Positions 1 to 16,831 of a stretch of 32,000 nucleotides of DNA are shown piece by piece. The notes under the pieces were generated by a model. It saw only the letters and a program-made list of their open reading frames with translations, ran no database searches and was not told the origin of the DNA. Both the position numbers and the translations under genes were made by a program. The stretch covers positions 240,001 to 272,000 of the forward strand of contig NC_010814.1 in assembly GCF_000020385.1 (NCBI RefSeq), given 5' to 3'. This DNA is from Trichlorobacter lovleyi SZ (GTDB lineage: Bacteria > Desulfobacterota > Desulfuromonadia > Geobacterales > Pseudopelobacteraceae). The number at the start of each line of letters is the position of its first letter. Positions within the stretch are counted from its first letter, which is position 1.

Positions 1-645
1 GCCATACCGGAGGATAAGGCCGACGAGGTGATGAAGATCCTCGACGGTGTTCGGGATGAGTTTGAGAAGGAGAAGCAGGAATTTTTGTCGGAGTACGACC
101 GCAGTCTGAGGGAATGGATTGATGCGAACCCCGAATGGGCAGCCATCATCGAAAAAGGCGTAGAACCAGCGTCAACAGCGGCACGCCGTCTGGGCTTCGC
201 AGTCCAGGCGTTCAAGGTCAAGAACATCGACGGACTGGACAAGGGGCTGAACGAACATGCCAGTACCCTGTCAGAACGGCTGATCTTTGAAATCAATCAA
301 CAAGCCAGGCAAGCCTGGGAGGAGTCGTACAAGGGACGCCCTTCTGTAACCCGGAAAGCGCTACGCCCGATCAAGTCCATGCTCGACAAACTGCGTGGTC
401 TTGAGTTCCTTTCTCCCTACCTGCTCACTCTGGCAGTACAGGTTGAAGACGTGTTGGCCTCATTACCAAAAAGCGGTCCCATCGAAGGACGGAATCTCAC
501 CTCACTTATCGGGATATTGCATGTCCTCGGCGATTTGCCGCTGGATGAAGTCCCGGCAGAGGAAGAAGAGGATGTTGTTGAAAACATCCTTCCCGAGACC
601 AGAACCGCTGAGCCGGTAAGCCTGCCCAGCGAATGGTTCTTTTAG
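1..645 (+). CDS. hypothetical protein, 5'-truncated by the window edge (DUF3150-like partner of CobT-type vWA proteins, from memory)
   Basis: Frame 1 is open from nt 1 (AIPEDKADEV precedes the first ATG at 28) to TAG at 643-645. The AGGAGG of the next gene overlaps the stop. The family call rests on recollection of the AAA-ATPase/DUF3150/vWA gene triad and cannot be verified here. Confidence 0.6.
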   Translation, partial: AIPEDKADEVMKILDGVRDEFEKEKQEFLSEYDRSLREWIDANPEWAAIIEKGVEPASTAARRLGFAVQAFKVKNIDGLDKGLNEHASTLSERLIFEINQQARQAWEESYKGRPSVTRKALRPIKSMLDKLRGLEFLSPYLLTLAVQVEDVLASLPKSGPIEGRNLTSLIGILHVLGDLPLDEVPAEEEEDVVENILPETRTAEPVSLPSEWFF

Positions 646-654
646 GAGGCCGCC

Positions 655-2373
655 ATGAAACACACCACACTGCCCCTGGTTGCCAAGGCACTCGGGGAAA
701 AATACGACATTCAGGTACAGATCTCCGGCGACCAGGCGTACACCAACGGACGGATTATCAATCTTCCGTCCCTGCCAGACAGCAAAGAGGCGGCACTGCT
801 TGCCCGTGGCTATATCGACCACGAGAGCGCCCACATCCGGTTCACGGATTTCAGCGTTAAAAGTAGTACCTCCATGCTCAAGTGCCTGACAAACATTCTT
901 GAAGACATCCGTATCGAGAAGATGATGGGAGCGAAGTATCCCGGGTGCCGGTCTAATTTGAAAGATCTGGCCGAGCACCTGAAGCAACAGGGGAGTTTCA
1001 CACCGTCACTTCAAGACCCACCGCAGACCCTACTGGCATGGCTATGCGCCAGGGGACGGCTAACCTTGAATCAGGACTTCAGTGACATCCTTGCCATGAC
1101 CAGCAGTACGGTCAACGGGTTTCTCGGCACCGGATACAAAAAGTTGCTGGACCTGACCGAGAGAATTCCAAATCTCGTCTCCACCAGGGACTCACAATCC
1201 ATGGCGGAGGAGATCCTGCGGTTGATCCGTGATGAAAAACACCAACAGGAGCAGGAACGGAAACGTCAGGAAGACCAGAAGGCGAAAACCACCTGCAGCT
1301 CTGATGGGTCAAAACCTGATGGCAGTTCCAATGATCAGGAAGAATACAATCAGACATCCGGCACTGACCAGCAGTCAGGAAAACCGAAACAGGATACCGA
1401 TGATTCATCACCCGATGGTGATAACACCGGTACTGCAGCAGGCGATGATTCTCAGTCCCAAGCTGCAGGCAATCCGTCGCCTCCTGTTCCCAAGAGTGGT
1501 TCCAGTGGGGAATTGGGTGGTAATCCCGAGGCTCTTCAGGAAATGCTCGATTGTGATCCTGGCGGGTTTGGCGATGTCGGTGAAATTCTCAAACATGAAC
1601 TGATAACTGAGGGTGAAACAGTCGGCAATCGGGGTGGCGTTCTGCTTCCACCGGAGGCCTCTCTGCGCACCTTTCCCATCGATATCCATGAAACCAGACG
1701 ACATACGGCGCTGCTCAGAGCCCGGCTTAGCGGATTAATCCAGGCAAGCCGACTGAGGAGACGTCATGCACGCCGCACCGGTAGCAAGATAGATAACCGG
1801 GTGGTGCATCGTCTTGCATTAAACGACACCAGGCTGTTTCTGCACCAAGAGGAGAAAACGGAGGTCAATACCGCCATCATGATCCTCGTGGACAGGAGTG
1901 GGAGCATGCAACACCAGAAAATCGAGGTTGCCTCTAAAACTGCATATGTTGTGGCAGAGGCCCTTGATTCAATCCCTGGATGTTTTGCTGCCGTTGCCGC
2001 ATTTCCAGTCGGCAACAGCGATGGGGTAGCACCTTTGGTGCGGTTTGGAGAGCGTCCCTGCTCGTCCAAATTCGGGATGTCGGCAGGCGGTGGCACACCT
2101 CTGGCCCAGGCACTGTACTGGGCTGGGGTGGAATTGCTCAAAAGGGAGGAACCCAGGAAAATTCTGCTCAGTGTAACTGATGGTGAGCCTGATGACCTGC
2201 GAACCACCAAAAGAGCAATCCGGTGGTTGTTGGAGCAAGGTATCGAGCCCATGGGGCTTGGTATCTGCGAGGAGTCGGTACGAACGATCTTCCCGACCTA
2301 CGGCGTTGTATATAGCGTCGAAGAACTGCCACCTGCGCTTTTCGGTATGCTTCAGGAAAAACTCACAAGGTAA
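655..2373 (+). CDS. von Willebrand factor A (vWA) domain protein, CobT-like
   Basis: 572-aa ORF with AGGAGG 6 nt upstream. The C-terminal region has the MIDAS-type motif ILVDRSGSM followed by LLSVTDGEPDD. A long Q/S/D/G-rich low-complexity linker spans about aa 190-300. Confidence 0.85.
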   Translation: MKHTTLPLVAKALGEKYDIQVQISGDQAYTNGRIINLPSLPDSKEAALLARGYIDHESAHIRFTDFSVKSSTSMLKCLTNILEDIRIEKMMGAKYPGCRSNLKDLAEHLKQQGSFTPSLQDPPQTLLAWLCARGRLTLNQDFSDILAMTSSTVNGFLGTGYKKLLDLTERIPNLVSTRDSQSMAEEILRLIRDEKHQQEQERKRQEDQKAKTTCSSDGSKPDGSSNDQEEYNQTSGTDQQSGKPKQDTDDSSPDGDNTGTAAGDDSQSQAAGNPSPPVPKSGSSGELGGNPEALQEMLDCDPGGFGDVGEILKHELITEGETVGNRGGVLLPPEASLRTFPIDIHETRRHTALLRARLSGLIQASRLRRRHARRTGSKIDNRVVHRLALNDTRLFLHQEEKTEVNTAIMILVDRSGSMQHQKIEVASKTAYVVAEALDSIPGCFAAVAAFPVGNSDGVAPLVRFGERPCSSKFGMSAGGGTPLAQALYWAGVELLKREEPRKILLSVTDGEPDDLRTTKRAIRWLLEQGIEPMGLGICEESVRTIFPTYGVVYSVEELPPALFGMLQEKLTR

Positions 2374-2391
2374 AAATATCATACCAACACC

Positions 2392-2458
2392 CCGACGGGG
2401 AATGCCATTCCCCACGGGGAGATGTGCGTTCTCCGTCGGTGCTACACGAGGAGAACCC
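2392..2458 (+). promoter_or_regulatory. structured 5' leader L1 (SD mimic / anti-SD / SD triad)
   Basis: 2392-2401 ccgacgggga pairs with 2430-2439 tctccgtcgg (10 bp, one G-U). 2428-2434 gttctcc is the exact complement of the SD region 2450-2456 ggagaac. ATG at 2459. Confidence 0.5.
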
Positions 2459-3022
2459 ATGAAAATAACCATTTCAAACGACAAGGCGTCGGCAACGGTC
2501 ATCTGCCGGGATCTGTTCCTGGACGATTCTGTGCCCGGCGCTCGCAATCTCTTCTATCTCACCGCCTACGGCCCCACTCAGGAGATCCGGGCATTCGCCC
2601 AGATTCTTGCCATGAAGGGGGCACTTGAATGCCACAGTAAAGATGACAGATCAATCAACATCTGGAGCAACCATCCCCTCCGGGTCATTCCGAAGATGGG
2701 CGAAGGGTATTCAGGGGCATATATCACGCCTTCGTCTGACTCGTCGTTTCTGATCGGCAGCTCGAAGGCGGATTGCTACCAGGTCTTTACCAGGATTCTC
2801 GATCAGCGAGAGTTTGTCCATCGCGATTGGTACGAGGCACTGTTCAACGAAGTATCCATGGAAATAGAGCCCCTTGTGGGAAACAAGCGGTGCTGGAAAT
2901 TCCGGGCCCACGAACTCAAGTCGGAGATAGTCAACCGGCTCAAGTACGGCGGTCTCAAGATGCCTCCAGCAACAGCGCACTTCACCATCGAGAAGGAGGA
3001 ACACCATGCGTTATCCAATTGA
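2459..3022 (+). CDS. hypothetical protein (187 aa)
   Basis: Internal ATG of ORF 2180..3022 preceded by GAGGAGAA. The longer form would overlap the vWA gene and cross the leader. Confidence 0.6.
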   Translation: MKITISNDKASATVICRDLFLDDSVPGARNLFYLTAYGPTQEIRAFAQILAMKGALECHSKDDRSINIWSNHPLRVIPKMGEGYSGAYITPSSDSSFLIGSSKADCYQVFTRILDQREFVHRDWYEALFNEVSMEIEPLVGNKRCWKFRAHELKSEIVNRLKYGGLKMPPATAHFTIEKEEHHALSN

Positions 3023-3275
3023 ACGGGTTTCGGACAACTGGGAACGCCGGATTGTCAAAAACGGCTACGTCCAACACCGTGAAGTCTACCGTAACGGTAC
3101 TCACGGAGAGTGGCAGTTTTACATATCCGGCTTCGGTCCCATGGTAGAAGTTGGTACGGGACGCTGCACCGTCCTTATGGAAGGCGGCAGCTATGACCAT
3201 TTCGTCCCCATCGATGCCGACAACCGCATCAAGATCAATGGCCGCTGGTATGACCGGCGCTATTGGGATCACTGA
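3006..3275 (+). CDS. hypothetical protein (89 aa)
   Basis: The ATG overlaps the 3' end of the preceding gene by 17 nt, on the same strand as the operon. No recognisable motif. Confidence 0.5.
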   Translation: MRYPIERVSDNWERRIVKNGYVQHREVYRNGTHGEWQFYISGFGPMVEVGTGRCTVLMEGGSYDHFVPIDADNRIKINGRWYDRRYWDH

Positions 3276-3306
3276 GACAAAGAAACAATAATTTCTATCC
3301 CTCTGC

Positions 3307-3383
3307 GGGTAGGCGGTTTTAACCTCCTCCCCGACCGGCGAGGGTGTTATCTCCGCCTGCCCCCTGTTACCAAGGAGACAGGC
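3307..3383 (+). promoter_or_regulatory. structured 5' leader L2 (variant of the triad)
   Basis: 3307-3316 gggtaggcgg pairs with 3353-3362 ccgcctgccc (10 bp, one G-U). The adjacent tctcc at 3350-3354 is complementary to SD ggaga at 3374-3378. ATG at 3384. Confidence 0.35.
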
Positions 3384-6300
3384 ATGGAACTTACCACTAC
3401 CATCAACAGCTCATTTTCCCGCACCCGGGGGAATGAACTGAACAAGGGCTACTACCCGACCTTTCCATCCGATGTTCAAACGGTACTCCGTATTCTGGAA
3501 CCGTCATTCGGTTGGAAAAGCCGGCGCTACAATGCCCTGAAAACCATATCCGTCCTTGACCCCTGTGCGGGTTCGGGCGAATTCCTTACCACGATAACCC
3601 GTTGGCTCAAACGGCGCTATGCTGCATCCAACGGTTCACCTCACGAAATCCTTTCCTACGCCGTTGAACTGGATGCCGGCAGGTTCGCCAGGATTCACGG
3701 GACAACCCAGAAGCTTAACTCGTCGTTCTTTGACGTAGAGTTATCCGGCAAGTTCAATCTGATTCTGCTGAATCCACCCTACAACAAGGCCGCCGGCAAC
3801 GAACTCGTCACCTGGATGGAAAAGACTGCACCTCTGCTTGCTTATGAAGGAGTGATGGTTCTCATCATTCCCGAGTATGAGCTGAAAGGGAGACTGCTGG
3901 ACATAATCCAGGGGACGTTTCCGTTTGCCTACGCTTTCCAGAGCGAGGAATACGCCCGCTTCAAGCAGGTGGTCGTGTTTCTGGCAAAGAACCAGGACAA
4001 CAGCAGCGAAATCTATCATCAGTACACACGTTATCAGAGTTGGCCCGCTGCCAACCTGGGGGATGGAGCGGTACGGGGGAAGTACACCGTGCCGGGCAAA
4101 CGCCAGACTCTTTCCCTTGGCGGCAGCAATGGCAGCAACCGCCCGCTCATGACCGCCCGCGACCTCACGGAGCTTTACCGGGAGTGCGAGGACCGGCTCG
4201 ACAAAGCGGCAGTCATGGTGCTGGACCGGCAGTATCCGTCGTCCTACGACACCAGCATCCAGCCCATCTCAACCCTGCGAACGGCGCATGCCGTCCAACT
4301 GGCAGCTATGAACAGCCAGATCGAATCCGTCACCATCAACGGCGACTTCTTCCTGGCCAAATTCATGGTCATCACCAAAACCGAGACCTTCAAGGACCCG
4401 GAGAACAACTGCGAGACGATGGTCTGCAAGCCCACCGTCGAAGCCTTTCTGATGGACCGCCACGGGCACGTCAAGCCGGCCCGGGAACATGGGTTCGACT
4501 ACTACGAACTCAACAGCCGTCTCTCATCGGTGCTTCTGCAAAAACTCTCGCGGCTCTACCAGCCCCTTCATGAAATCGGCCAGGACGAAACATACCTGGT
4601 TGATGAACTGCAGGGGATCGGTCTGCTCCCCCCACAACGGGAAGCGGTCAAGGCCGTCATCAAGGCCTACCGCTCAGGACGCCGGGGCATTGGTATTCGT
4701 GCCAACACCGGCACGGGTAAAACATGGATGGCGAAAGCGGTCAAGTACCTCACTGAGGCAAAACGCACGGTGATGGTATCGGAACCGCAGCTCATCCCCC
4801 AGTTGGCAAAGGAGTACGCCAACGAGGGTTTCAATGTGCATGTCATCGACTCCTGGGAAGCCCTGAAGGAACTTACCGCAACCAGGCCGCACGGTCTCTA
4901 TCTGATCGCCTACACGCGGCTCCGCATGCACCCGAAATACCGGCTCTGTATCAAGAGTCGTAAAACCATCGTCAAGAAGGATGGTCACAGCTCCGTTGAA
5001 TACACGGAAGTCTGCCCATCATGCCGTTCGCCTCTATCCGAGAAAATCCGCAAAGGTGACAAACCCAAGTGCTTGTACTGCGGCGAACCGCTCTTTACCT
5101 ATATTCCTGAAAATGACCGACCTGTCATGACCTATCGTCGCTGGATCAGCGAAATCGAGAACAACGGCACCGCCACGGAAGCCAGGACGCACAACAAGCA
5201 GCTTCCGTACATCCGGCTCTTGAAGCGGATACCGTTCGACCTCGCCATCTTCGACGAAGCCCACAACGCGGCCAACCTGATGAGTAACCAGGGGACCGCG
5301 TTCATCCGGCTTGCCGCAACCGCCAAGAAGGTTCTCGCCCTCACCGCCACCGTGACCAACGGTATGGCGAAATCCATCTATAACATCCTGTGGGGGTTGA
5401 ATCCAATGCAAATGCGGAGTGCCGGCTGGGAGATGAAGTCGGCCACTGATTTCCAGACAAAATACGGTGCGTTCAAGACCGTCAGGAAAACCGATGAGAA
5501 AAACCGTCACCGTGAATCGGAGCGTGTCACCACCTACGATACGGCTGGCATCTCACCGGCAGCCCTGATCTTTACGATTCCCAATTTCGTAAATGTGGAC
5601 AGTGACGACTTCGACGATCTGCCTCCTGTGGAACGGGAAGTCATCAAGTGTCAATCACACGCCCTGGTGGAAACCTGTCACCGGAGCATCGAAAACATCA
5701 TCGAAAAGGCAGACCTGCCACCGGAAGACCTTATGGCAGCTGCAGCCGTCCGCAATGCAGCGTTCCTGCGTGTCAGCGACACGTTCCGGCATTACAACGA
5801 CGAATTGAAACTGCGGGATATTCCGCTCGGCACACTGCACCGGCTGTCGCTTCCCGACGGGGAGCTGCTGCTGGAAAAAGAAGAAAAACTGATCGGTATC
5901 GCCCAGGGGGTGATCGACCGGGGAGAGCGTCTGCTGGTCTATACCGGCAACACGCAGAAGATCGACATGCGTCCCATCCTGAAACGCATCCTTCGGGATA
6001 ACGTTCAGGGCGCCAGCATCGAGATCCTGCCCGACTCGGTTGCTCCTGAAAAGCTGGTTGGATGGTTCGAGCAGGTAACGGCCCAGGTCGTTGTCGTCTC
6101 TTTCCACCGCGTTGCCACGGGTCTCAACCTATCCCAGTTCAACAACCTTGTCTGGTACGACTACACGTCCAATACCAGGCTGGCCGAACAGGGAGACGGG
6201 AGAATCCGTCGCGTCAATACCGCTGACATCCACCGGGCTCAGTTCGGGGAAGTTCGTCCCGTCCGTTACTGGTATCTCACCTCATCGGAAGTCCAGGCAC

Positions 6301-6737
6301 TGCAGCTTGCCTACACCCTGGAGAAGAGGATGGTCGCCAAGCTCGCGGAGGGGGAAACACCTGACATCGACCCGGCTGAATGCAGCAGCCAGTCGTTTTC
6401 ATCTCTGATGACAAAGGCGCTCAAGGAGGGGAACTTCAATTACACGGACCCGTCGTCCCTGTTGAAGAAGATGACCCAGCACGAGAATGCCCGAGTCAGG
6501 GGAGACAACAAGGGAGAAGCGCCGATCAAAAGCAACATCATCCATCTACCAATCACCAAGCCGGAACCTGCTCCAGTTCCACCATCCATTGCAGTCATTC
6601 ATTGTGAAGACGGCAGAGAGGTCACTCGGGACTTGTCATTCGGCATGTACCAGACCTTGCTGGATGCGGGAGCCCTGGAGTTCACCCTGTTTGGCGTCTA
6701 TGTGCGTAATCCCGCCCCCAGGCGGAAATACGCCTGA
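3384..6737 (+). CDS. N6-adenine DNA methyltransferase :: SF2 (DEAH) helicase fusion protein with CxxC...CxxC zinc ribbon insert
   Basis: N-terminus has VLDPCAGSGEF (SAM motif I) and LLNPPYNK (motif IV). The middle has ANTGTGKTW (Walker A) and IFDEAHNA (motif II). CPSCRS...CLYCGE lies between them. The C-terminal helicase lobe has FHRVATGLNL. Confidence 0.9.
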   Translation: MELTTTINSSFSRTRGNELNKGYYPTFPSDVQTVLRILEPSFGWKSRRYNALKTISVLDPCAGSGEFLTTITRWLKRRYAASNGSPHEILSYAVELDAGRFARIHGTTQKLNSSFFDVELSGKFNLILLNPPYNKAAGNELVTWMEKTAPLLAYEGVMVLIIPEYELKGRLLDIIQGTFPFAYAFQSEEYARFKQVVVFLAKNQDNSSEIYHQYTRYQSWPAANLGDGAVRGKYTVPGKRQTLSLGGSNGSNRPLMTARDLTELYRECEDRLDKAAVMVLDRQYPSSYDTSIQPISTLRTAHAVQLAAMNSQIESVTINGDFFLAKFMVITKTETFKDPENNCETMVCKPTVEAFLMDRHGHVKPAREHGFDYYELNSRLSSVLLQKLSRLYQPLHEIGQDETYLVDELQGIGLLPPQREAVKAVIKAYRSGRRGIGIRANTGTGKTWMAKAVKYLTEAKRTVMVSEPQLIPQLAKEYANEGFNVHVIDSWEALKELTATRPHGLYLIAYTRLRMHPKYRLCIKSRKTIVKKDGHSSVEYTEVCPSCRSPLSEKIRKGDKPKCLYCGEPLFTYIPENDRPVMTYRRWISEIENNGTATEARTHNKQLPYIRLLKRIPFDLAIFDEAHNAANLMSNQGTAFIRLAATAKKVLALTATVTNGMAKSIYNILWGLNPMQMRSAGWEMKSATDFQTKYGAFKTVRKTDEKNRHRESERVTTYDTAGISPAALIFTIPNFVNVDSDDFDDLPPVEREVIKCQSHALVETCHRSIENIIEKADLPPEDLMAAAAVRNAAFLRVSDTFRHYNDELKLRDIPLGTLHRLSLPDGELLLEKEEKLIGIAQGVIDRGERLLVYTGNTQKIDMRPILKRILRDNVQGASIEILPDSVAPEKLVGWFEQVTAQVVVVSFHRVATGLNLSQFNNLVWYDYTSNTRLAEQGDGRIRRVNTADIHRAQFGEVRPVRYWYLTSSEVQALQLAYTLEKRMVAKLAEGETPDIDPAECSSQSFSSLMTKALKEGNFNYTDPSSLLKKMTQHENARVRGDNKGEAPIKSNIIHLPITKPEPAPVPPSIAVIHCEDGREVTRDLSFGMYQTLLDAGALEFTLFGVYVRNPAPRRKYA

Positions 6738-6758
6738 CGAGACCTCAACCATCAATCC

Positions 6759-6819
6759 GTGCGGGGACAGATACCCCGTAAGGGTCGATCTGTCTCCGCA
6801 CATTACAAGGAGACAGTCC
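6759..6819 (+). promoter_or_regulatory. structured 5' leader L3 (SD mimic / anti-SD / SD triad)
   Basis: 6759-6769 gtgcggggaca pairs with 6791-6801 tgtctccgcac (11 bp, one G-U). 6791-6797 tgtctcc is the exact complement of SD 6809-6815 ggagaca. ATG at 6820. Confidence 0.55.
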
Positions 6820-7254
6820 ATGGCAGACACCATATCAGCAAAACGCCTCATCATACCCATTCACGACAACAGCGAGTTCTTCTCTGACAACGCTGACTAC
6901 GCCGTCATCGATCTTGATGCCACGCTTATCGAGCGGATCAAGAAACTTGCGGTGGTTGTAAGGCAGATGAAAGCCTACAAAATCAGCGAATTCAACCATG
7001 CCTGTGACTTCATGGTGGCTGACTGGGATGCCGAGCCGGACAACGGCAAGGTAGCCCTGAAGGAATTTGAGGGACGAATGGAGTGTAATACTCTGAACGT
7101 CACCGACAGTGATTTTTTCTGGTCGGGCTATTACAAACATACTGATGTTCGGTGGGAAACCGACACGGTGCTGCTTGTAGTGCTCGACGAGCCAGGCATC
7201 CATGATGAACGGGAAACTTGCACAGATGTGACCGGTCAAGGTGAATCATCATGA
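6820..7254 (+). CDS. hypothetical protein (144 aa)
   Basis: Internal ATG of ORF 6487..7254 preceded by AAGGAGACAG. The longer form overlaps the helicase gene. Confidence 0.6.
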   Translation: MADTISAKRLIIPIHDNSEFFSDNADYAVIDLDATLIERIKKLAVVVRQMKAYKISEFNHACDFMVADWDAEPDNGKVALKEFEGRMECNTLNVTDSDFFWSGYYKHTDVRWETDTVLLVVLDEPGIHDERETCTDVTGQGESS

Positions 7255-7463
7255 GAGGGAAAGATCTGAGTTCTCTTGAGTGGCAACCCGTCAATGACCC
7301 CAATGGCATGACCGCCTATGAAGCCTTTGATGCAAAAGGCCGCAGTTACTACCTGGTACGGAACAAGCACAAACCGGAGATGATGTTCGTCATCAGCGAC
7401 GGTTTCACGGTTCCTCCCGGGTGGTACACCGACAAGGGCGGCTCTATCAGAAGAGTTTCCTGA
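7251..7463 (+). CDS. hypothetical protein (70 aa)
   Basis: ATGA start/stop overlap with the preceding gene. Confidence 0.5.
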   Translation: MRGKDLSSLEWQPVNDPNGMTAYEAFDAKGRSYYLVRNKHKPEMMFVISDGFTVPPGWYTDKGGSIRRVS

Positions 7464-7482
7464 CAATTAACCGCCAACCCCA

Positions 7483-7547
7483 TCGGGGAGATACGTCTCC
7501 CTCCGGGGTTTCTGTCTCCCCGAACCATCAATCAAAGGAGACAGTCC
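7483..7547 (+). promoter_or_regulatory. structured 5' leader L4 (SD mimic / anti-SD / SD triad)
   Basis: 7483-7493 tcggggagata pairs with 7513-7523 tgtctccccga (11 bp, one G-U). 7513-7519 tgtctcc is the complement of SD 7537-7543 ggagaca. ATG at 7548. Confidence 0.55.
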
Positions 7548-8246
7548 ATGGCAGACTACATGAATCAATCAGTATTCCAACCTTCCATTCCCAAACACCT
7601 GATCAACGACGAGGACCGACGCATTATCGAGGCGTTCAGCATCACATTTGAATCCGACGGCGAGGACAAGTTCTACCTCTACGCGGAGGAGTGGTGCTGT
7701 AATGGCTACCTCAATCCGGAGGAGCCCGGCGGAGAAGAGATCGAAATCAGTGAGGACGATCTTTTCAGCAGGTTCCAGGAGATTATTCGCCGCTCCAACG
7801 GTGAACTTCCCTGGATCTCCAAGGAGAGCGCCTATACCTGTTCGCGGATGCGACCGGATGGCTTCGGCGGCGGAGCAGTTTTCATCACCGCTGATGACAT
7901 TCAGTACAGCTTTACCGGCCAATGGCTGGAACAGCGGATCAGCGAAACAGAAACCGGTGACATCGGTCCACATACGGAAGATCCACCTCCGACCAAGCCG
8001 ATTGTCGGCGTCGTCCTCGAAGGCGGTCTGGTGCAGAGCATTGTCAGCAATGTACCGGAGCAGATCCCGGAAATGGACGTGATTATTCTCGACTACGATG
8101 TCGAGGGGTTCGAGGAGGAATGTCTTCTCAAAGTTCCCCAGAGCAGCGGCGAAATCGCTCGTGCTGTTGGACACATCGAGAAGATTACCGAGTCCGGAAT
8201 CGATCTGGGAATGGTTCTCAATCAGATGAATGCAAGGGGGTGGTGA
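7548..8246 (+). CDS. hypothetical acidic protein (232 aa)
   Basis: AAGGAGACAG SD. The translation initiation region is identical over 22 nt to that of the gene at 6820. Confidence 0.65.
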   Translation: MADYMNQSVFQPSIPKHLINDEDRRIIEAFSITFESDGEDKFYLYAEEWCCNGYLNPEEPGGEEIEISEDDLFSRFQEIIRRSNGELPWISKESAYTCSRMRPDGFGGGAVFITADDIQYSFTGQWLEQRISETETGDIGPHTEDPPPTKPIVGVVLEGGLVQSIVSNVPEQIPEMDVIILDYDVEGFEEECLLKVPQSSGEIARAVGHIEKITESGIDLGMVLNQMNARGW

Positions 8247-8247
8247 C

Positions 8248-8769
8248 ATGAGCCCTCTTGAGCAAACGACAGACGAACCGACCAACGAGGAACGTGCCGA
8301 CCGAATCGACACGGTCATGCAGGCCTACTGCCTGACACTCGAAGGCCGGGATTTCGATGGCGACGAAGATGACGTCAAAGACATGCTCACGGACCTGATG
8401 CACTTCTGTAAGCGTATGAAGATTGACTTTGAGGAGAATCTCCGCGTCGCCCGCAACAATTACGAACATGAGAGAAATGCGGAAACCGGTATACCGGATC
8501 ATTTCGGTTGCCTGGTATGCGGCTGTTTTCTGGAAGTCTCACGAACCGATACCCTGTTGGGGATCGACCGGGAGATTTTTGACTGTCAGAACTGCGATGA
8601 GACCTTCATCCGGGAGCTGACGGTAACAGACAGCCCCATTGAACGGGCCGTGAAGTGCATCGGCTGCGGCAACATGATTCCGCAATCATCAGCACGCATC
8701 TTCTACCAGCGCGACGACTACGCCCATTTCATCGGCGAGTGCTGCTGGGACGAACGACTACGCGACTGA
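8248..8769 (+). CDS. hypothetical Cys-rich (zinc-ribbon-like) protein (173 aa)
   Basis: The ATG lies 1 nt after the upstream stop and is preceded by AAGGGGG. Contains CLVCGC...CQNC and CIGCG...CCWDE cysteine pairs. Confidence 0.6.
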   Translation: MSPLEQTTDEPTNEERADRIDTVMQAYCLTLEGRDFDGDEDDVKDMLTDLMHFCKRMKIDFEENLRVARNNYEHERNAETGIPDHFGCLVCGCFLEVSRTDTLLGIDREIFDCQNCDETFIRELTVTDSPIERAVKCIGCGNMIPQSSARIFYQRDDYAHFIGECCWDERLRD

Positions 8770-8794
8770 CCAAACTACCATAATACATCCAGCG

Positions 8795-8854
8795 GGGAGA
8801 CAACTCCCCGAGGGGAAAGTCTGTCTCCCAGGCTAATAGCAAAGGAGATAGACC
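8795..8854 (+). promoter_or_regulatory. structured 5' leader L5 (SD mimic / anti-SD / SD triad)
   Basis: 8795-8802 gggagaca is the exact complement of 8822-8829 tgtctccc. 8822-8828 pairs with SD 8844-8850 ggagata (7 bp, one G-U). ATG at 8855. Confidence 0.5.
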
Positions 8855-9310
8855 ATGCCCACAAAAATCACTCTCAACCCCGGCTATGCCGGCGGTGTTT
8901 ATGTTCTCGACCATGGCGAGTTCTATACCTGTCTGGGCTTCGATGTTGTCTTGAAGAAGGCGGCAGCCCTGGCAACGGAACTGAACTCTCCTGAACACTC
9001 CCCTGTTCCAACCGAACGCGGCACCATGGCAGCTTATCGCAAGTACTCTGCCCTGGTTGATAAAGCCCGCCAGAAGAATATCTCAACCGGATGGCGCTCG
9101 CGTGTTGACCTGACAGCCGATCTGATCGGTCTGGAGGGAAAACGCGTGGAGGTCATCGACTGCTACGGAGATCGCCGACGTTTCATTGTTGGTCGGTCAA
9201 CCGGGTGGATACCATGCCACCTGGAGATCAAATCCCGGAGCAGTTCCGGGGGTGAAGCTGTCTGGGGAACTCCGTTTCGTTCAGTACGAGTAGTCGGGGG
9301 TACGGCATGA
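8855..9310 (+). CDS. hypothetical protein (151 aa)
   Basis: AAAGGAGATAG SD and coding-length ORF on the operon strand. Confidence 0.6.
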   Translation: MPTKITLNPGYAGGVYVLDHGEFYTCLGFDVVLKKAAALATELNSPEHSPVPTERGTMAAYRKYSALVDKARQKNISTGWRSRVDLTADLIGLEGKRVEVIDCYGDRRRFIVGRSTGWIPCHLEIKSRSSSGGEAVWGTPFRSVRVVGGTA

Positions 9311-9858
9311 ACATAGGCCATCACACTACAGGAGGTACGAGAAGAATGACTGTAAAAACCGTCATCTCTGCGGCGAAGGAATTCGGCGTACCGGAACGCT
9401 ATGCGATCATGCGCCGGCTTTCATTCCTGCAACCGCAAATCAAACATCTGGAACGTGAAATCTGGGGAGCCCAACGGCGGATCGAGCGAAGTTCTGATCC
9501 GCTGGTAAAGGCCCTGACTGAATCCTTCATCAGAGACCAGGAAAAGGAGCTGCGCCCCCTGAAACGGGAGGCAACAGCGCTTCTCAACCATGTCAACGGC
9601 AAGGAGACGGTGCTGGCACCCGGCGGGATCACCCCGGAGATGATCGACCAGGCCCGTCAGTATCCCATCACCAGCATCATCGACTTTTCCAAAGGGCGGT
9701 ATCGATGCTGTCCGTTTCACAAGGACCGCAATCCGTCCATGGCGCTTTACGATAACCATGTCCATTGCTTTGTCTGCAACCGGTCATGGGATTCAATCAG
9801 CGCCACGATGGAACTGGATGGTGTGAACTTCCGGGAGGCAGTACTGGCGCTCCAGTAA
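9307..9858 (+). CDS. CHC2 (DnaG-type) zinc-finger protein without recognisable TOPRIM/primase catalytic domain
   Basis: C-terminus has CCPFHKDRNPSMALYDNHVHCFVCNRSWDSI, which fits the zf-CHC2 pattern. ATGA overlap with the upstream gene. An alternative start is at 9346 after GGAGG. Confidence 0.7.
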   Translation: MNIGHHTTGGTRRMTVKTVISAAKEFGVPERYAIMRRLSFLQPQIKHLEREIWGAQRRIERSSDPLVKALTESFIRDQEKELRPLKREATALLNHVNGKETVLAPGGITPEMIDQARQYPITSIIDFSKGRYRCCPFHKDRNPSMALYDNHVHCFVCNRSWDSISATMELDGVNFREAVLALQ

Positions 9859-9884
9859 CCTGAATCAATATCAATCAACCCTAT

Positions 9885-9939
9885 GGGGGCGGACACTGCC
9901 CCTTGGGGGAGTCCGCCCTCAACAATTTAGGAGGCGGAC
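9885..9939 (+). promoter_or_regulatory. structured 5' leader L6 (triad with covarying sequence)
   Basis: 9885-9894 gggggcggac pairs with 9911-9920 gtccgccctc (10 bp, one G-U). 9911-9917 gtccgcc is the complement of 9933-9939 ggcggac, which covers the 3' half of the SD through position -1. ATG at 9940. Confidence 0.55.
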
Positions 9940-10431
9940 ATGAATCTCGATCTCTTCGGAGAACCAGCAGCACCGACAACAAAAAGAATCTTCATAAAAT
10001 CAATCGAAGCCCGTTATCGCAACGAGGTTGTCAGAGACAACGCCCCTCAGTGGGTATCAATGCGGTTTACGCAACCCCAGCAGGTATTCGAGATGTTCCG
10101 GGATCTCCGTCTGGAGACAAAGGAGCACTTCATAGTTCTGCATCTGGACGGCAAAAACCGGATCGTCTGCTTTGATCGAGTATCGATTGGATCGCTCAAC
10201 CAGGCCATTGTCCATAGCCGCGAGGTCTTCAAAACGGCATGCCTCTCGAATGCGGCGGCCGTGCTCCTCGTGCATAATCATCCTACAGGTGACCCGACAC
10301 CCAGCCAGGAAGATATCGCCATCACCAGACGTCTCAAGGAAAGTGGCGAGATCCTCGGCATCAAGGTGCTTGATCACATCATAGTCGGTGATGACGAGTT
10401 CCTGAGTTTTGTTGAAAGGGGACTCTTGTAA
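9940..10431 (+). CDS. radC: RadC-like JAB/MPN domain protein
   Basis: LVHNHPTGDPTPSQEDI is the JAMM-type HNHPSG-x-PS motif. The 163-aa size is typical of mobile-element RadC. Confidence 0.9.
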   Translation: MNLDLFGEPAAPTTKRIFIKSIEARYRNEVVRDNAPQWVSMRFTQPQQVFEMFRDLRLETKEHFIVLHLDGKNRIVCFDRVSIGSLNQAIVHSREVFKTACLSNAAAVLLVHNHPTGDPTPSQEDIAITRRLKESGEILGIKVLDHIIVGDDEFLSFVERGLL

Positions 10432-10478
10432 ATAATGAGGGAGCGGCGCTCAAACGCCCTCCCTCGGCTCTTCCCCCA

Positions 10479-10538
10479 GCCCAAAAGGGTTCCTTAGAGC
10501 CACCGTTCCAGCGGTGGTTGTAGGGAGCCCTTTTGGGC
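10479..10538 (+). other. 60-nt imperfect extended hairpin (unknown role: ncRNA, ssDNA structure or processing site)
   Basis: 10479-10493 gcccaaaagggttcc pairs with 10524-10538 ggagcccttttgggc (15 bp, one G-U). The inner stem is 10500-10505 ccaccg with 10512-10517 cggtgg. It is preceded by a second hairpin, 10437-10443 gagggag with 10459-10465 ctccctc. No U-tract follows either hairpin. Confidence 0.45.
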
Positions 10539-10568
10539 CACCATCACAACGATAAGGGGGATAGAGTC

Positions 10569-10706
10569 ATGTCAGTTCGAGCACGCATTAACGGTAGGGA
10601 GTTCACACTGAGTTGGGAGGAGTTTGAGAAGGCTCTGCAGAGAAACAATCTTGCAGGAGGCGAATTCGAGGTTCTTGCCATTCTTTCGGGGGTGAAACCC
10701 TACTAG
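10569..10706 (+). CDS. possible small ORF (45 aa, MSVRARINGREFTLSWEEFEKALQRNNLAGGEFEVLAILSGVKPY)
   Basis: ATG preceded by AAGGGGGA with a terminator 35 nt downstream. It is below the ORF-track length cut-off and has no recognisable motif. Confidence 0.3.
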   Translation: MSVRARINGREFTLSWEEFEKALQRNNLAGGEFEVLAILSGVKPY

Positions 10707-10724
10707 CATCTTCAGTCCGGATAC

Positions 10725-10768
10725 CAGTCCGGTCTGGATAGAGGCGGCCCTAGTGGTCGCCTTTTATT
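10725..10768 (+). repeat. direct repeat copy 1 (contains terminator hairpin 10742-10762 plus TTTATT)
   Basis: cagtccggtctggatagaggcggccctagtggtcgccttttatt. 38 of 44 positions are identical to 12419-12462 by hand alignment. Confidence 0.65.
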
Positions 10769-10817
10769 CGTTGATGAACATAATAATCTTCCCGTAACAA
10801 TACTCAATAGTCTAGCG

Positions 10818-10846: not shown

Positions 10847-10882
10847 GAGACAAAATAACCTAGCCGAGACAGAGGTATGGAT

Positions 10883-12409
10883 ATGGCAACAACACCAGCA
10901 CAACGCAGACTTGCTGATGCACTCGACGTCCTGAAAAAACTGCAGGATGGTGGGAAGACTGCAGTAAAATCGAGTGACCTGACTCGATTACAGCGGGAAA
11001 GTCTTGTCAGCAACGGATTCCTGCGACTGATTGTTAAAGGATGGTATATGCCATCCCGTCCGGGAGAGGACACCGGTGACAGCACTCCCTGGTATGCAGC
11101 AATGCGTGACTTTATTCATGGCTACTGCGATGAGAGATTTGGCGATAATTGGCATGTATCGGCAGAATACTCATTGCTTTTACACGCCGGCACAACAATC
11201 TCGCCACGGCAGGTTGTGATTCACTCGCCGCTTGGGAAAAACGGCCTGTTGCAGCTACCGGACGATTGTTCAATCCTTGATTATAAGGCCAAGGATTTCC
11301 CGTCAGCAGCAAAAATACAAGCCGTTGATGGAGTCAGAGCTCTTATCCTGCCTTTAGCACTCATCCGTGTGCCGGAAGCATTTTTCGTCACATTTGCACA
11401 GGATGCACAAATTGCCCTGCATCAACTTCGTGATGCATCAGAACTCAATCGCGAACTGCTCGAAGGGGGCCATAGTACAATTTCCGGACGTCTTGCCGGT
11501 GCATTGCGGGCATCTGGCCGTAAAGAATTGGCGGATGATGTGTTAGCAACCATGCGGGCTGCAGGGTTTGTGGTGAACGAAACAAATCCATTTAACGTTA
11601 CACCACCAAGTCTGCAATTCACAAGAGCACAATCACCGTACGTTCTTCGTATGCGCTTGATGTGGCAAGCAATGAGGGAAACAGTAATTGCCTGTTTCCC
11701 ACTCGAACCTGGCACTCCAGCAGATATTGATAAATATATGGAGGTTGTTGAGGAAACCTACCAGACCGATGCCTATCACTCTCTGTCGATTGAGGGGTAC
11801 CGTGTAACTGCCGAGCTTATTCAGAAGGTTGCTACCGGAAACTGGAATCCCGATGATAATGCTTCTGACGCAGAAGCAAAAAATGCCATGGCTGCTCATG
11901 GGTACTGGCTTGCGCATAATGAGGTTAAGGCAACGATCAGAGGCATTCTTGCAGGTGCAAACCCGGGCGCTGCATTCCGCCTGGACCACGGTTCATGGTA
12001 TCGCAAGCTTTTCACGCCGAATGTCGATGCCGGCTTTCTCAAGCCGGCGGATCTAGCCGGTTATCGGGCAGACAAGGTATTTATCCGGAACGCATCCCAT
12101 GTCCCGCCTTCCCAGGAAGCGGTCCGTGACATGATGCCGGAACTGTGCGACTTGCTGGAGGCGGAGCCCAACGCAGCCGTACGTGCCGTTCTTGGACATT
12201 TTCTTTTCGTGTACATCCATCCGTATTTTGATGGCAATGGTAGATTGGGCCGGTTCCTGATGAATACCATGCTGGCGTCTGGTGGATATCCGTGGACAGT
12301 AATCCGCATTGAGCTGCGGGGTGACTATATGGCAGCGCTTGAAGCGGCGAGTTCGCAAAAAGAAATAAAACCTTTTGCAGAATTCATAGCAAGTTCGATG
12401 AACAGATAA
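10883..12409 (+). CDS. Fic/DOC family protein with N-terminal wHTH-like region
   Basis: The canonical Fic motif HPYFDGNGRLGR lies near the C-terminus. GAGG sits 7 nt before the ATG at 10883, and an in-frame ATG at 10877 is also possible. Confidence 0.9.
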   Translation: MATTPAQRRLADALDVLKKLQDGGKTAVKSSDLTRLQRESLVSNGFLRLIVKGWYMPSRPGEDTGDSTPWYAAMRDFIHGYCDERFGDNWHVSAEYSLLLHAGTTISPRQVVIHSPLGKNGLLQLPDDCSILDYKAKDFPSAAKIQAVDGVRALILPLALIRVPEAFFVTFAQDAQIALHQLRDASELNRELLEGGHSTISGRLAGALRASGRKELADDVLATMRAAGFVVNETNPFNVTPPSLQFTRAQSPYVLRMRLMWQAMRETVIACFPLEPGTPADIDKYMEVVEETYQTDAYHSLSIEGYRVTAELIQKVATGNWNPDDNASDAEAKNAMAAHGYWLAHNEVKATIRGILAGANPGAAFRLDHGSWYRKLFTPNVDAGFLKPADLAGYRADKVFIRNASHVPPSQEAVRDMMPELCDLLEAEPNAAVRAVLGHFLFVYIHPYFDGNGRLGRFLMNTMLASGGYPWTVIRIELRGDYMAALEAASSQKEIKPFAEFIASSMNR

Positions 12410-12418
12410 GTTGCCTAG

Positions 12419-12462
12419 CAATCCGGTCAGGATAGAGGCGGCCCAAATGGCCGCCATTTATT
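12419..12462 (+). repeat. direct repeat copy 2
   Basis: caatccggtcaggatagaggcggcccaaatggccgccatttatt. See copy 1. Confidence 0.65.
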
Positions 12463-12465
12463 ATT
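12437..12465. terminator. bidirectional intrinsic terminator between the convergent Fic and TIR genes
   Basis: The stem ggcggcc (12437-12443) pairs with ggccgcc (12449-12455) and is followed by a T-rich tail ATTTATTATT. It is A/T-rich on both sides. Confidence 0.6.
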
Positions 12466-12478
12466 GGTACAATAGTAT

Positions 12479-12952
12479 TTATCGTTGCCCGGTAGCTGAC
12501 TTCAACATTCGATGAAAATCGCCTGATGACTTTACTGACGCATAAGAAGCCCTGAGAGATTCTGATTTTTCAAGTAGAACACTGCTATCATTATTATACA
12601 GTCTTACAAATTCTGCTAAATGTTCGGGTCTATTCATTATCGGCCAAATATCTAAATATTCCGGCAAACTGACGCCATCAATTTTGTATGAACAGATACG
12701 CCTATCAGCTTCAGAAGCAACCCCTACTTCAAAAGGGACCCACCAAGAACCTGATGTATTGTGTGACATTATCGCCATTAAATGGCTACAGTCACCTATT
12801 CTTGACATAATAACATCAGTAATATTTTTAGATCGTTGCAGTACTTCATCAAATTCATCAATATAGCACTTAATCTTGTTGGCCTCCAAATATGCGTATA
12901 TCTTGAGAGCAGATGCTTTATCTGCTTTACGATGAGACAAAAACACTGGCAT
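12479..12952 (-). CDS. small stand-alone TIR domain protein (157 aa)
   Basis: N-terminal MPVFLSHRKADK, then SGSWWVPFEVG with a candidate catalytic Glu. GGGAGG SD. Confidence 0.8.
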   Translation of the reverse strand: MPVFLSHRKADKASALKIYAYLEANKIKCYIDEFDEVLQRSKNITDVIMSRIGDCSHLMAIMSHNTSGSWWVPFEVGVASEADRRICSYKIDGVSLPEYLDIWPIMNRPEHLAEFVRLYNNDSSVLLEKSESLRASYASVKSSGDFHRMLKSATGQR

Positions 12953-12964
12953 AAATACCTCCCG

Positions 12965-13513: not shown

Positions 13514-13551
13514 AATGGTCTCCTATAAATTTAGTTTTAAAGGCACAAATT

Positions 13552-15573: not shown

Positions 15574-15585
15574 TCTATTTCCTTC

Positions 15586-15849: not shown

Positions 15850-15867
15850 TTCAATCTCCTTTTTTTC

Positions 15868-15896
15868 TTGAAGTTTTCTATCATGAAGGGTATAAA
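15868..15896 (+). promoter_or_regulatory. candidate promoter for the WYL regulator gene
   Basis: TTGAAG (15868-15873), 17 nt, then TATAAA (15891-15896). Confidence 0.35.
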
Positions 15897-15908
15897 AACT
15901 GTACGCAT

Positions 15909-15937
15909 AATATATATACGGATAGTTGCTATGTCAA
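15909..15937 (-). promoter_or_regulatory. candidate promoter for the TIR operon
   Basis: On the minus strand, TTGACA (15937-15932), 17 nt, then TATATT (15914-15909). This is close to consensus. Confidence 0.4.
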
Positions 15938-16827: not shown

Positions 16828-16831
16828 AGTG

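Follow-up and report, generated by a model that had tools for sequence, protein, structure and literature searches.

Six short leader sequences, designated L1 to L6, were found to precede consecutive translational units of a polycistronic operon in a 32,000-nt stretch of Trichlorobacter lovleyi SZ (NC_010814.1, positions 240,001-272,000, forward strand; GCF_000020385.1), which is termed the window below and which, judging from its sequence, is a mobile element of the Geobacterales/Desulfuromonadales. Each leader is probably an aptamer-less toggle built of a Shine-Dalgarno (SD), an anti-SD and an anti-anti-SD segment, which acts in cis and controls access to the ribosome-binding site (RBS) of the next translational unit. 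The analysis of the leaders was wholly computational and comprised folding, covariance models, alignments and swap tests.

Predicted two-state architecture of the leaders

Folding and alignment revealed that a leader of about 60-85 nt is constructed from six alternating G/C blocks, namely C1, G1+arm, C2, G2, arm'+C3 and SD+arm''. From the 5' end, an A/C-rich tract is followed by CAA-C1 (CCC), 3-5 nt, and G1 (GGGG) with a variable arm, the last two constituting a mimic of the SD; next come C2 (CCCC), a short loop, G2 (GGGG), arm'+C3 as the anti-SD, an A/C-rich spacer of about 10 nt, AAGGAG+arm'' and the ATG. The linkers have an A+C content of 71-73% and a G content of 8-12%, and the family consensus reads ..CAAcCC...cGGGGaga...CCC....GGG..gtctGtCtcC...AAGGAGacag.

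Two mutually exclusive folds can be formed from these blocks. In the closed fold, C1:G2 stacked on G1:C2 gives a 5' hairpin, and the anti-SD is paired to the SD and its tail. In the open fold, the mimic and its arm are paired with arm'+C3 in a single long hairpin with C2:G2 at its tip, where a UNCG or GNRA loop is frequently carried, and both C1 and the SD are left free. An earlier sequence-only reading of this DNA had described triads of mimic, anti-SD and SD; these three blocks were recovered, whereas the conserved C1 (CCC), C2 (CCCC) and G2 (GGGG), which build the 5' hairpin that competes with the mimic:anti-SD helix, had been overlooked. The following features were assigned in the window, all on the plus strand.

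2374..2461, +, L1 leader, before the open reading frame (ORF) 2459-3022 of 187 amino acids
L1 blocks: C1 2390-2393; mimic 2392-2401 (G1 2397-2400); C2 2410-2413; G2 2416-2419; anti-SD 2428-2439; SD+tail 2450-2456; ATG 2459
L1 triad: mimic CCGACGGGGA, anti-SD GTTCTCCGTCGG, SD GGAGAAC; 10 bp mimic:anti-SD, 7 bp anti-SD:SD
3276..3386, +, L2 leader (looser variant), before the DUF6094 methyltransferase-helicase gene 3384-6737
L2 parts: long hairpin arms 3307-3316/3353-3362; CCUGU 3363-3367, pairing with the SD tail ACAGG 3378-3382; SD GGAG 3374-3377; ATG 3384
6738..6822, +, L3 leader, before ORF 6820-7254
L3 blocks: C1 6756-6758; mimic 6759-6772; C2 6774-6777; GUAA loop 6778-6781; G2 6782-6784; anti-SD 6788-6801; SD+tail 6809-6816; ATG 6820
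L3 triad: mimic GTGCGGGGACA, anti-SD TGTCTCCGCAC, SD GGAGACA; 11 bp contiguous mimic:anti-SD, 7 bp anti-SD:SD
7464..7550, +, L4 leader, before ORF 7548-8246
L4 blocks: C1 7478-7481; mimic 7483-7493; C2 7496-7501; UCCG loop; G2 7505-7508; anti-SD 7512-7523; SD+tail 7537-7544; ATG 7548
L4 triad: mimic TCGGGGAGATA, anti-SD TGTCTCCCCGA, SD GGAGACA; 11 bp mimic:anti-SD, 7 bp anti-SD:SD
8770..8857, +, L5 leader, before ORF 8855-9310
L5 blocks: C1 8788-8790; mimic 8794-8802; C2 8804-8809; G2 8812-8815; anti-SD 8819-8829; SD+tail 8844-8853; ATG 8855
L5 triad: mimic GGGAGACA, anti-SD TGTCTCCC, SD GGAGATA; 8 bp mimic:anti-SD; anti-SD:SD 7 bp, 10 bp when extended
9859..9942, +, L6 leader, before radC 9940-10431
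L6 blocks: C1 9879-9881; mimic 9885-9894; C2 9899-9902; G2 9905-9909; anti-SD 9911-9920; SD+tail 9930-9939; ATG 9940
L6 triad: mimic GGGGGCGGAC, anti-SD GTCCGCCCTC, SD GGCGGAC; 10 bp mimic:anti-SD, 7 bp anti-SD:SD

In L1, L3, L4, L5 and L6, each segment and ATG reads as had been claimed, with mimic:anti-SD stems of 10, 11, 11, 8 and 10 bp, respectively, and anti-SD:SD stems of 7 bp in each of the five triads; the latter pairing extends to 8-10 bp in L3, L4 and L5, and the 10-bp helix of L5 includes one U-G. A G-U pair had been proposed at the position where GGGGA of the mimic corresponds to GGAGA of the SD in L1, L3 and L4. This does not hold for L4, where a U-G is found near the arm end instead, because the L4 mimic pairs 2 nt out of register relative to that of L3. 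Extraction of the segments bore out that L6, despite its divergent arm (GCGGAC/GUCCGC/GCGGAC), retains every pairing. L2 is indeed a looser variant, consisting in the window of the long hairpin and a small SD-tail hairpin, while its orthologues in elements of about 60% identity are full triads (GGGGCAGGCGG / CCGCCUGCUCC / GGAGCAG).

When each leader was compared with 200 dinucleotide shuffles of its plus strand, none of the shuffles was as stable as the native sequence for any of the six, which answers the folding check proposed with the earlier reading; the z scores are -4.27 for L1, -4.27 for L2, -5.85 for L3, -4.06 for L4, -5.46 for L5 and -4.26 for L6. The minimum free energy (MFE) structure is the closed fold in L1, L4, L5 and L6 and the open fold in L3, where it is a 14-bp mimic:anti-SD stem. 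The two folds of L1 are almost equal in energy (-36.2 closed versus -35.2 open), while those of L4 are at -31.8 and -25.7. The consensus computed by RNAalifold from 34 leaders is likewise the closed fold. Dominance of the mimic stem, as implied by the sequence-only reading, was not found: the SD is closed in the predicted ground state of four of the five window triads and of 172 of 184 leaders of the family, the best SD-paired fold beating the best SD-unpaired one by a mean of -5.0 kcal/mol. Once the SD region is removed, the MFE structure becomes the long hairpin in nearly all motif-bearing leaders.

No runs of at least four U after the hairpins and no terminator-like or promoter-like sites are present in L1-L6, in agreement with the earlier statement that the leaders are not intrinsic terminators; promoter-like hexamer pairs are absent from the leaders as well, and no internal start codon with an SD, as would be required for a leader peptide, occurs in L1-L6. 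An identical RBS-to-start stretch, AAGGAGACAGTCCATGGCAGAC, is shared by L3 and L4 (window 6820-6828 and 7548-7556), the downstream proteins being different, and this sequence identity suggests duplication or recombination of leaders inside the element. The leader stems were missed by a repeat search with default-like settings because the G-U positions break its seeds.

Size and distribution of the family

The family was searched in the window and 32 related loci (L001-L032), 563 kb in total, with a covariance model termed R1 that was built from 34 leaders. The model gave 307 matches at E <= 1, of which the strong ones are all on the gene strand, while the minus-strand matches are weak echoes of the palindromes. 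By nhmmer, 200 plus-strand matches (184 unique sequences) were obtained against 15 on the minus strand. Within the 32-kb window, the only R1 matches are the six leaders: L1 at 2381-2461 (E = 1.3e-6), L2 weakly at 3320-3386 (E = 0.0015), L3 (E = 5e-25), L4 (E = 2.5e-23), L5 (E = 3e-19) and L6 (E = 1.8e-18). An element carries 7-15 leader copies, each ending at a start codon, and an ORF of at least 40 codons follows 189 of 193 copies, compared with 47% for random ATGs. Where genes overlap or abut in pairs, the leader stands ahead of the first of the two and never within the pair. The search of related elements suggested by the earlier reading thus yielded about 200 same-strand copies whose pairings are conserved with compensatory changes.

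The copies are confined to one operon. No strong leader match (E below about 0.02) was obtained in the tra genes of locus L024. Plasmid pPRO1 of Pelobacter propionicus contains 14 matches, all within the operon at 16930-35387, and pSD of Geobacter anodireducens contains about 15 on the gene strand of the same operon; both plasmids are typed MPF_F, and their other genes are devoid of leader matches. Plasmid pGSUB1, which has the helicase and not the operon, gave zero matches. A pattern scan of metagenomes returned at least 120 contigs, and multi-copy, same-strand leaders were confirmed by R1 in about 20 of the 34 contigs tested; the covariance model did not bear out the pattern matches from viral contigs or human-gut metagenomes, which are ascribed to chance. 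The leader family is common in sediment and groundwater metagenomes and is conserved across plasmids and integrative and conjugative elements (ICEs) of metal-reducing Desulfuromonadia.

Covariation of both folds

The closed fold was evaluated on the R1 alignment of 143 distinct leaders, in which 94.4% of the cells are paired and 95 compensatory cells were counted versus 21.9 in shuffles (0/500). Double changes occur in five of the seven anti-SD:SD pairs, and the C1:G2 pair is CG in 126 leaders, UA in 8 and UG in 6. For the open fold, a second covariance model (R2) fitted to that fold was utilized to align 58 leaders (alignment A6), giving 90.3% paired cells, double changes in 15 of 17 pairs and 168 compensatory cells versus 46.6, with a score of 0.467 versus 0.161 and only 43-68% pairing in slid controls. 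Because each of these alignments is fitted to the structure counted on it, the anti-SD:SD helix was also counted on the alignment fitted to the open fold, where it is 76.7% paired (36-49% when slid) with 38 compensatory cells versus 13.7.

A plain MAFFT alignment of 16 sequences from one gene family (A4) supports both helices as well. The open helix is 88.8% paired (score 0.193 versus 0.121) and the SD helix 84% paired (score 0.159 versus 0.089), the observed values being reached by 0 of 500 shuffles in either case. In this alignment, the anti-SD column 42 covaries with the mimic column 18 (AU 8, CG 5) and with the SD-tail column 66 (UA 9, GC 5), which is direct three-way covariation. Specific evidence for the open fold comes from pair 8-52 (GC 7, UA 5), which sits at the long hairpin's base and is not part of the SD helix.

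An alignment-free partner-swap test was carried out with 114 unique triples. The anti-SD:SD duplex of a leader has an energy of -15.4 kcal/mol, compared with -11.4 kcal/mol for swapped partners (z = -19.6), while the corresponding values for mimic:anti-SD are -19.7 and -13.4 kcal/mol (z = -22.5); swapping thus costs 4-6 kcal/mol, and none of 10000 permutations was as low as observed. A tuning position was also found in the anti-SD: if it is U, the pair made with the mimic is G-U and that with the SD is U-A, and if it is C, these become G-C and C-A, respectively. In alignment A6, pair 16-70 is GC in 26 leaders, GU in 19 and AU in 11, with none unpaired, while pair 70-114 is UA in 31 and other in 25. 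As far as sequence variation can tell, both folds are under selection. The core of the sequence-only reading, a shared RNA-level translational switch, is supported, as regards structure and evolution, by the covariation of both helices, by the z scores of the swap test and by the termination of the motif at the start codon.

RNA rather than DNA as the functional molecule

The SD itself serves as the third arm of the structure, and the ATG marks the end of the motif. The long stem freely accepts G-U pairs at places where its complement would carry C-A, and the 1x1 interruptions of the open folds are GU/UG in 47 cases against AC/CA in 17. Among 72 tip tetraloops, 15 are UNCG (1.1 expected) and 7 are GNRA (2.2 expected), and such loops stabilise RNA and not DNA, an argument that has also been made for the STAXI motif (PMC2864571). 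Since the SD and ATG are built in, G-U is tolerated and UNCG/GNRA loops are enriched, the functional molecule is, on this evidence from the sequences, the sense-strand RNA.

A role at the DNA level, in the transferred strand or in recombination, would require the leaders to serve as entry hairpins for primosome or primase, as Frpo-type promoters or as attC-like cassette sites. The operon adjoins F-type transfer genes in conjugative elements and encodes a CHC2 primase-like protein, the gene modules are permuted between elements, and the hairpins would form in DNA too. Such a role is nevertheless very improbable, as about 200 copies have the SD as their third arm and end at the ATG, G-U is frequent where the complement would carry C-A and G-T is destabilising in DNA, and the UNCG and GNRA loops are stabilising specifically in RNA (PMC2864571). 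The leaders, at 60-70 nt, are moreover short and without -35/-10 boxes, no R''/R' core boxes of attC sites (RYYYAAC ... GTTRRRY), which flank an imperfect palindrome at cassette 3' ends, were found in L1-L6, and module breakpoints often lie at gene junctions, outside the leaders. An attC site also has an IntI integrase next to it, and the closest tyrosine recombinase here is 9 kb away on the opposite strand. The low rank that the sequence-only reading had given to a single-stranded DNA (ssDNA) function is accordingly retained, G-U being allowed where the opposite strand would have C-A.

Energetics and proposed mechanism

The closed-minus-open difference is about -6 kcal/mol in the gene families g5, g7, g9 and g11 and -1.2 kcal/mol in g2. 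RBS tuning specific to each gene was considered and discarded, four gene families sharing the same difference. When the mimic is blocked, the difference becomes -10.1 kcal/mol, and when all sequence 5' of G1 including C1 is blocked, it shifts from -6.0 to -3.4 kcal/mol; with the mimic, the SD is thus about half as costly to expose as without it, while C1 opposes the mimic. Mean findpath barriers are 16 kcal/mol from the nascent 5' hairpin to the long hairpin, 20 kcal/mol from open to closed and 26 kcal/mol from closed to open, values that are upper bounds because pseudoknotted intermediates are omitted. The free-free nucleation run between the fully folded states has a median of 1, while the nascent 5' hairpin presents in its loop a stretch of the mimic arm that can pair with the anti-SD as it emerges. 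This stretch has a median of 4 nt and is at least 4 nt long in 77 of 122 leaders.

In the proposed mechanism, the 5' hairpin (C1:G2, G1:C2) of the closed state would lock the mimic away while the anti-SD covers the SD and its tail, and the GC-rich SD helix would essentially block binding of the 30S subunit. In the open state, the mimic and its arm would capture the anti-SD in the long hairpin, leaving the SD single-stranded. According to the folding model, the choice between ON and OFF is most likely made during transcription, since barriers of about 20 kcal/mol stand between the folded states, which have no free nucleation site in common, and since the nascent hairpin exposes the mimic arm; it would fall in the interval of about 15-25 nt in which the anti-SD has been transcribed and the SD has not, and would then be locked. 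The choice could be biased by the speed or pausing of RNA polymerase, by a change in how stable the 5' hairpin is, or by a factor bound to this conserved hairpin or to C1. A thermosensor, which had been offered as one possible function, is unlikely given the GC-rich SD helix, an own anti-SD:SD duplex of -15.4 kcal/mol and barriers of about 20 kcal/mol.

As the leader precedes all of the roughly 7-15 translational units and is absent from the tra genes, a single condition could gate translation of the whole SSB-to-RadC establishment/recombination operon in F-type plasmids and ICEs of Desulfuromonadia. A plausible use would be to keep establishment genes quiet in resident cells and to allow a burst after transfer. 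More tentatively, and with the balance of probability against it, the leaders could represent a new class of riboregulator, aptamer-less and kinetically trapped, with 7-15 copies per operon. Such a class would parallel zygotic induction at the post-transcriptional level, the establishment genes (ssb, recombination, methylase-helicase, primase-like, radC and others) being translationally silent in residents and jointly switched on. The trigger could then be altered kinetics of RNA polymerase on newly entered DNA, or the absence of an element-encoded repressor that binds the leaders, and cleavage of the open hairpin by RNase III might render the activation irreversible.

Several points weigh against the toggle. 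The existence of the switch, its direction and its trigger are all inferred, and the error of the nearest-neighbour energy model is large enough to cover a difference of about 5 kcal/mol between structures that are themselves at -30 to -35 kcal/mol. The paired percentages on the R1 and R2 alignments are inflated by the fitting of each alignment to the structure counted, and the leader counts include many copies that are related by descent and are not independent events. Covariation of the 5' hairpin is thin, amounting to 8 U-A cells, with C1:G2 and G1:C2 being near-invariant G/C runs. In unconstrained, mostly closed folds, C-A interruptions (49) outnumber G-U, which weakens the strand test for the anti-SD:SD helix; this excess is attributed to the one recurrent tuning position, at which an anti-SD C stands opposite the A of GGAG. 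Finally, GGAGAC/GUCUCC is conserved beyond the needs of pairing, which the toggle model does not explain and which could reflect recognition by a factor.

Alternative explanations

This over-conservation, seen in blocks such as CAACCC as well as GGAGAC/GUCUCC, is what would be expected if the leaders were operators at which a trans-acting factor common to all of them, either a small RNA or an RNA-binding protein and encoded by the element (or the host), reads CAACCC, GGGGAGAC and the 5' hairpin and stabilises one fold everywhere. The two-state core would be kept and the trigger supplied, with repression in residents and zygotic de-repression in recipients in the manner of FinOP or T4 RegA. The common set-point of about -6 kcal/mol across gene families, which is not gene-specific, the restriction of the motif to one operon with its absence from the adjacent tra genes, and the lack of a spontaneous route between the folded states are all consistent with such a factor. 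However, no candidate was found, there being no RNA-binding Pfam or PHROG match among the uncharacterised proteins of the operon; in duplexes with the leaders, the conserved structured RNA from the head of the operon does not outperform its own shuffles, and a single RNA cannot read the variable arms. A trans-acting factor is rather unlikely, albeit the most credible of the explanations weighed against the cis-acting toggle.

The same uniform set-point argues against constitutive leaders that do not switch and merely insulate the RBS or stabilise the mRNA. Here the RBS would always be paired and the mimic would only lower the cost of opening it, which is predicted to fall from about 10 to about 6 kcal/mol; the linkers would resist nucleases or Rho, the hairpins would protect processed ends, and the long hairpin, being near two helical turns, might be an RNase III site. 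In phage T7, RNase III sites lie between early cistrons. The A/C-rich, G-poor linkers and the retention of a leader by each reshuffled gene module would suit this function, but the set-point is not tuned between genes, the tra operons of the same elements manage without the motif, and C1 and the tip tetraloops each matter in one fold only, which argues for both folds being populated; such leaders are unlikely. No better placed is a relay of translational coupling, in which a ribosome ending the upstream cistron would cover or unwind C1 or the base of the 5' hairpin and so release G2 for C2 and the mimic for the anti-SD, so that each cistron is translated only if the preceding one is. The leaders are intercistronic, blocking of C1 moves the balance towards the open fold (-6.0 to -3.4 kcal/mol), the stop codon is just 3 nt from C1 in some leaders such as UGAcaaCCCGGCAGGGG, and the first paired base lies within 9 nt of the stop in 41% of the leaders (n=128; median 11.5 nt). 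Yet the distance from stop to C1 is unconstrained (median 15 nt, range 0-35; gaps of 14-20 nt in the window), most 5' hairpins are beyond the reach of about 9-10 nt of a terminating ribosome, the anti-SD is always at least 40 nt downstream of the upstream stop codon, and blocked C1 never makes the open fold the predicted ground state. Given these variable distances and an SSB leader that is complete despite having a terminator and not an ORF upstream, direct coupling by the ribosome is improbable as a general mechanism.

Comparison with known systems

No match to the leaders was obtained in Rfam 15 (4227 families), either at the gathering score or at E <= 10 with relaxed filters; the only weak matches were miRNA models on the hairpin at 10479-10538 and a sobemovirus frameshift stem on L6 (E = 7.5). 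The literature on anti-anti-SD elements was found to comprise riboswitch and synthetic-riboregulator work and gave no description of the leader family, that on leading regions deals with ssDNA promoters and codon adaptation and gave no such leaders, and the Geobacter genome papers examined do not tie multicopy sequences to the leader-bearing operon. Judged by these searches, the leader family appears to be an undescribed cis-regulatory RNA.

The closest parallel in design is the expression platform of translational riboswitches such as the Escherichia coli thiM thiamine pyrophosphate (TPP) riboswitch, in which the anti-SD has two possible partners, the SD (OFF) and an upstream competitor (ON), with mutually exclusive helices (PMC2018614) and a probably kinetic decision. 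The leaders share two conserved, mutually exclusive helices with riboswitches and lack an aptamer; in place of a conserved multi-helix junction, they have just nested hairpins of G/C runs with variable arms. They also differ in that the competitor is itself sequestered by two further blocks, and in being present 7-15 times per operon instead of once at its head. RNA thermometers of the ROSE and fourU types have weak, imperfect SD helices that melt close to physiological temperature, whereas the SD helix of the leaders is strong and GC-rich, and no ROSE or FourU model matches; intrinsic terminators and attenuators have a U-tract behind a GC-rich hairpin, which the leaders lack.

In gene context, the nearest described relative of the leaders is the radC RNA motif (RF01754), which is located in the 5' untranslated regions of radC, methyltransferase, anti-restriction and integrase genes of mobile elements and carries stable tetraloops (Weinberg et al. 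2010, PMC2864571), as leaders stand before radC (9940) and before the DUF6094 methyltransferase-helicase gene (3384). The radC motif is, in contrast, a larger multi-hairpin structure of beta- and gamma-proteobacteria. Its model gave no match over the whole window at the gathering score, and none at E <= 10 on 2300-10800 or, with relaxed filters, on 6730-7560. Membership of the leaders in the radC motif was thus rejected, the context being shared and the structure different.

In the ermC model, the leader hides the SD in a ground-state hairpin, and a leader peptide, whose short ORF has its own SD and overlaps the first segment, shifts 1:2/3:4 to 2:3 pairing together with a stalled ribosome. The present leaders are like those of ermC/cat attenuation in having several segments, a ground state that hides the SD and an alternative pairing that frees it, whereas they have no leader ORF with an SD and their alternative fold is nested (1:3 encloses the 2:G2 hairpin). 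The intercistronic hairpins of the T7 early operon are processing signals that do not include the SD. Like these hairpins and STAXI, the leaders are repeated structured RNAs beside early or establishment genes (anti-restriction, ssb) of an incoming element, and unlike them they display three-way covariation of SD, anti-SD and mimic. Frpo is a folded DNA of about 300 nt, a long imperfect hairpin with -35/-10 boxes. The leaders differ from it in their length of 60-85 nt, their stems of 8-14 bp, the absence of promoter boxes, the inclusion of SD and ATG and the tolerance of G-U, and they would act on translation. STAXI (RF01728) itself, a tandem pseudoknot, occurs in Enterobacteria close to ssb and anti-restriction genes (PMC2864571), and Frpo-type ssDNA promoters are structured elements that control the early expression of leading-region genes such as ssb (PMC9849209, PMC13478746).

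Operon and element context

The operon in the window was delineated from Pfam matches and the ORF layout as follows.

28..10770, +, polycistronic operon carrying the leaders
to 645, +, DUF3150-like gene (partial)
655-2373, +, CobT/VWA gene
2459-3022 and 3006-3275, +, ORF pair
3384-6737, +, DUF6094 methyltransferase-helicase gene
6820-7254 and 7251-7463, +, ORF pair
7548-8246 and 8248-8769, +, ORF pair
8855-9310 and 9346-9858, +, ORF and CHC2 zinc-ribbon gene
9940-10431, +, RadC gene
10569-10706, +, small ORF of 45 amino acids
10740-10764, terminator-like hairpin at the operon end, the sole convincing terminator

Between 655 and 10740, promoter-like and terminator-like sites occur as chance-level matches only. 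A hairpin with 27-nt arms (10479-10505/10512-10538, 85% complementary) is located between radC and the small ORF and, with the hairpin at 10740-10764 after it, may be another kind of leader or a processing site at the operon end.

Homologues of the DUF6094 methyltransferase-helicase are found in Geobacter, Geomonas, Geoalkalibacter and related metagenome-assembled genomes. In related loci, the operon begins with ssb, after which come genes for an AAA_24 ATPase, a PD-(D/E)XK nuclease, TSCPD, a MoxR/CbbQ ATPase, WGR, DUF3150 and CobT/VWA, and its 3' part corresponds to the window genes, with two uncharacterised ORFs, the methyltransferase-helicase, further uncharacterised ORFs, the CHC2 zinc-ribbon gene and RadC. 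SSB, the product of the first gene, has a full leader that is preceded by a terminator and by no ORF. Upstream on the same strand, genes for a TraD/TrwB-like coupling protein, an HD-domain protein, TraF and TraH are encountered, which are without leaders, and the leader-bearing set is one that we take to resemble the ssb-to-radC establishment/recombination regions of other F-type conjugative elements. In L024, the HD-domain protein (1911-3392, 493 amino acids), whose gene is flanked by traF and that of the coupling protein, could represent a relaxase of the HD type (MOBH-like) missed by MOB-suite typing, an idea put forward because pPRO1 and pSD were typed 'non-mobilizable' despite their MPF_F genes.

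Gene modules are present, absent or permuted between elements, each retaining its own leader, and their breakpoints often fall at gene junctions, outside the leaders. This mosaic is illustrated by units such as 7251-8246 or 8855-9310, which are missing in some close relatives, and by elements of about 60% identity with another module order (methyltransferase-helicase ... DUF3150, CobT, g9, RadC, g5, g7, g8).

A conserved non-coding region of about 330 nt lies directly upstream of the SSB leader at the operon head in six related loci.

Operon-head region: L024:7240-7612; L014:7222-7598; L016:2069-2450; L027:7268-7607; L003:247-627; L001:887-1219

Invariant within it are TTGACA, accompanied by a -10-like box, and CCCNGGCAGGGA, and compensatory changes are seen in several hairpins. 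After these elements come a covarying intrinsic terminator and a conserved CCGCGACAAGCCUUG.AAGCGGCGG hairpin. No Rfam match to the region was obtained, and it is a candidate small RNA, or a candidate attenuator or antitermination leader for the whole operon. An Frpo-like ssDNA promoter was rejected, no long hairpin being present in L024 (z = -1.2 and -1.3), as was a trans-activating RNA, the duplex energies with the leaders being no better than those of shuffled heads.

Downstream of the operon, a Fic-domain gene (10877-12409) is followed by three minus-strand TIR-type genes (TIR_2, ThsB-like TIR, TIR+SLOG) and then by a plus-strand cluster of WYL, RlaP (RNA-repair polymerase beta family), cpYpsA SLOG and a CCA-adding/poly(A) polymerase with an HD domain, so that window 10877-19293 looks like a defence and RNA-repair island. 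On the minus strand at 19284-30215, a tyrosine recombinase (19766-20854) adjoins HNH genes and a restriction-type cluster of HATPase_c_3, an EcoRII N-terminal domain protein, an SNF2 helicase, an EcoRII C-terminal domain protein, Vsr and a fusion of a Dcm-type C5 methylase with a helix-turn-helix domain.

Significance

The timing of the conjugative-element genes that are needed right after entry is an active question, and the known answers, namely single-strand promoters, repressors and antitermination, are all transcriptional. The leaders would add a translational layer, copied before each translational unit of a 10-20 kb operon. About 200 natural variants of one bistable design would offer rich material for the study of ligand-free RNA switching, and the leader could serve as a portable, insulated part for the control of translation. 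Meanwhile, the family would provide a mechanistic lead for structured motifs that have long been orphans near radC, ssb and anti-restriction genes, such as radC, STAXI and Pedo-repair.

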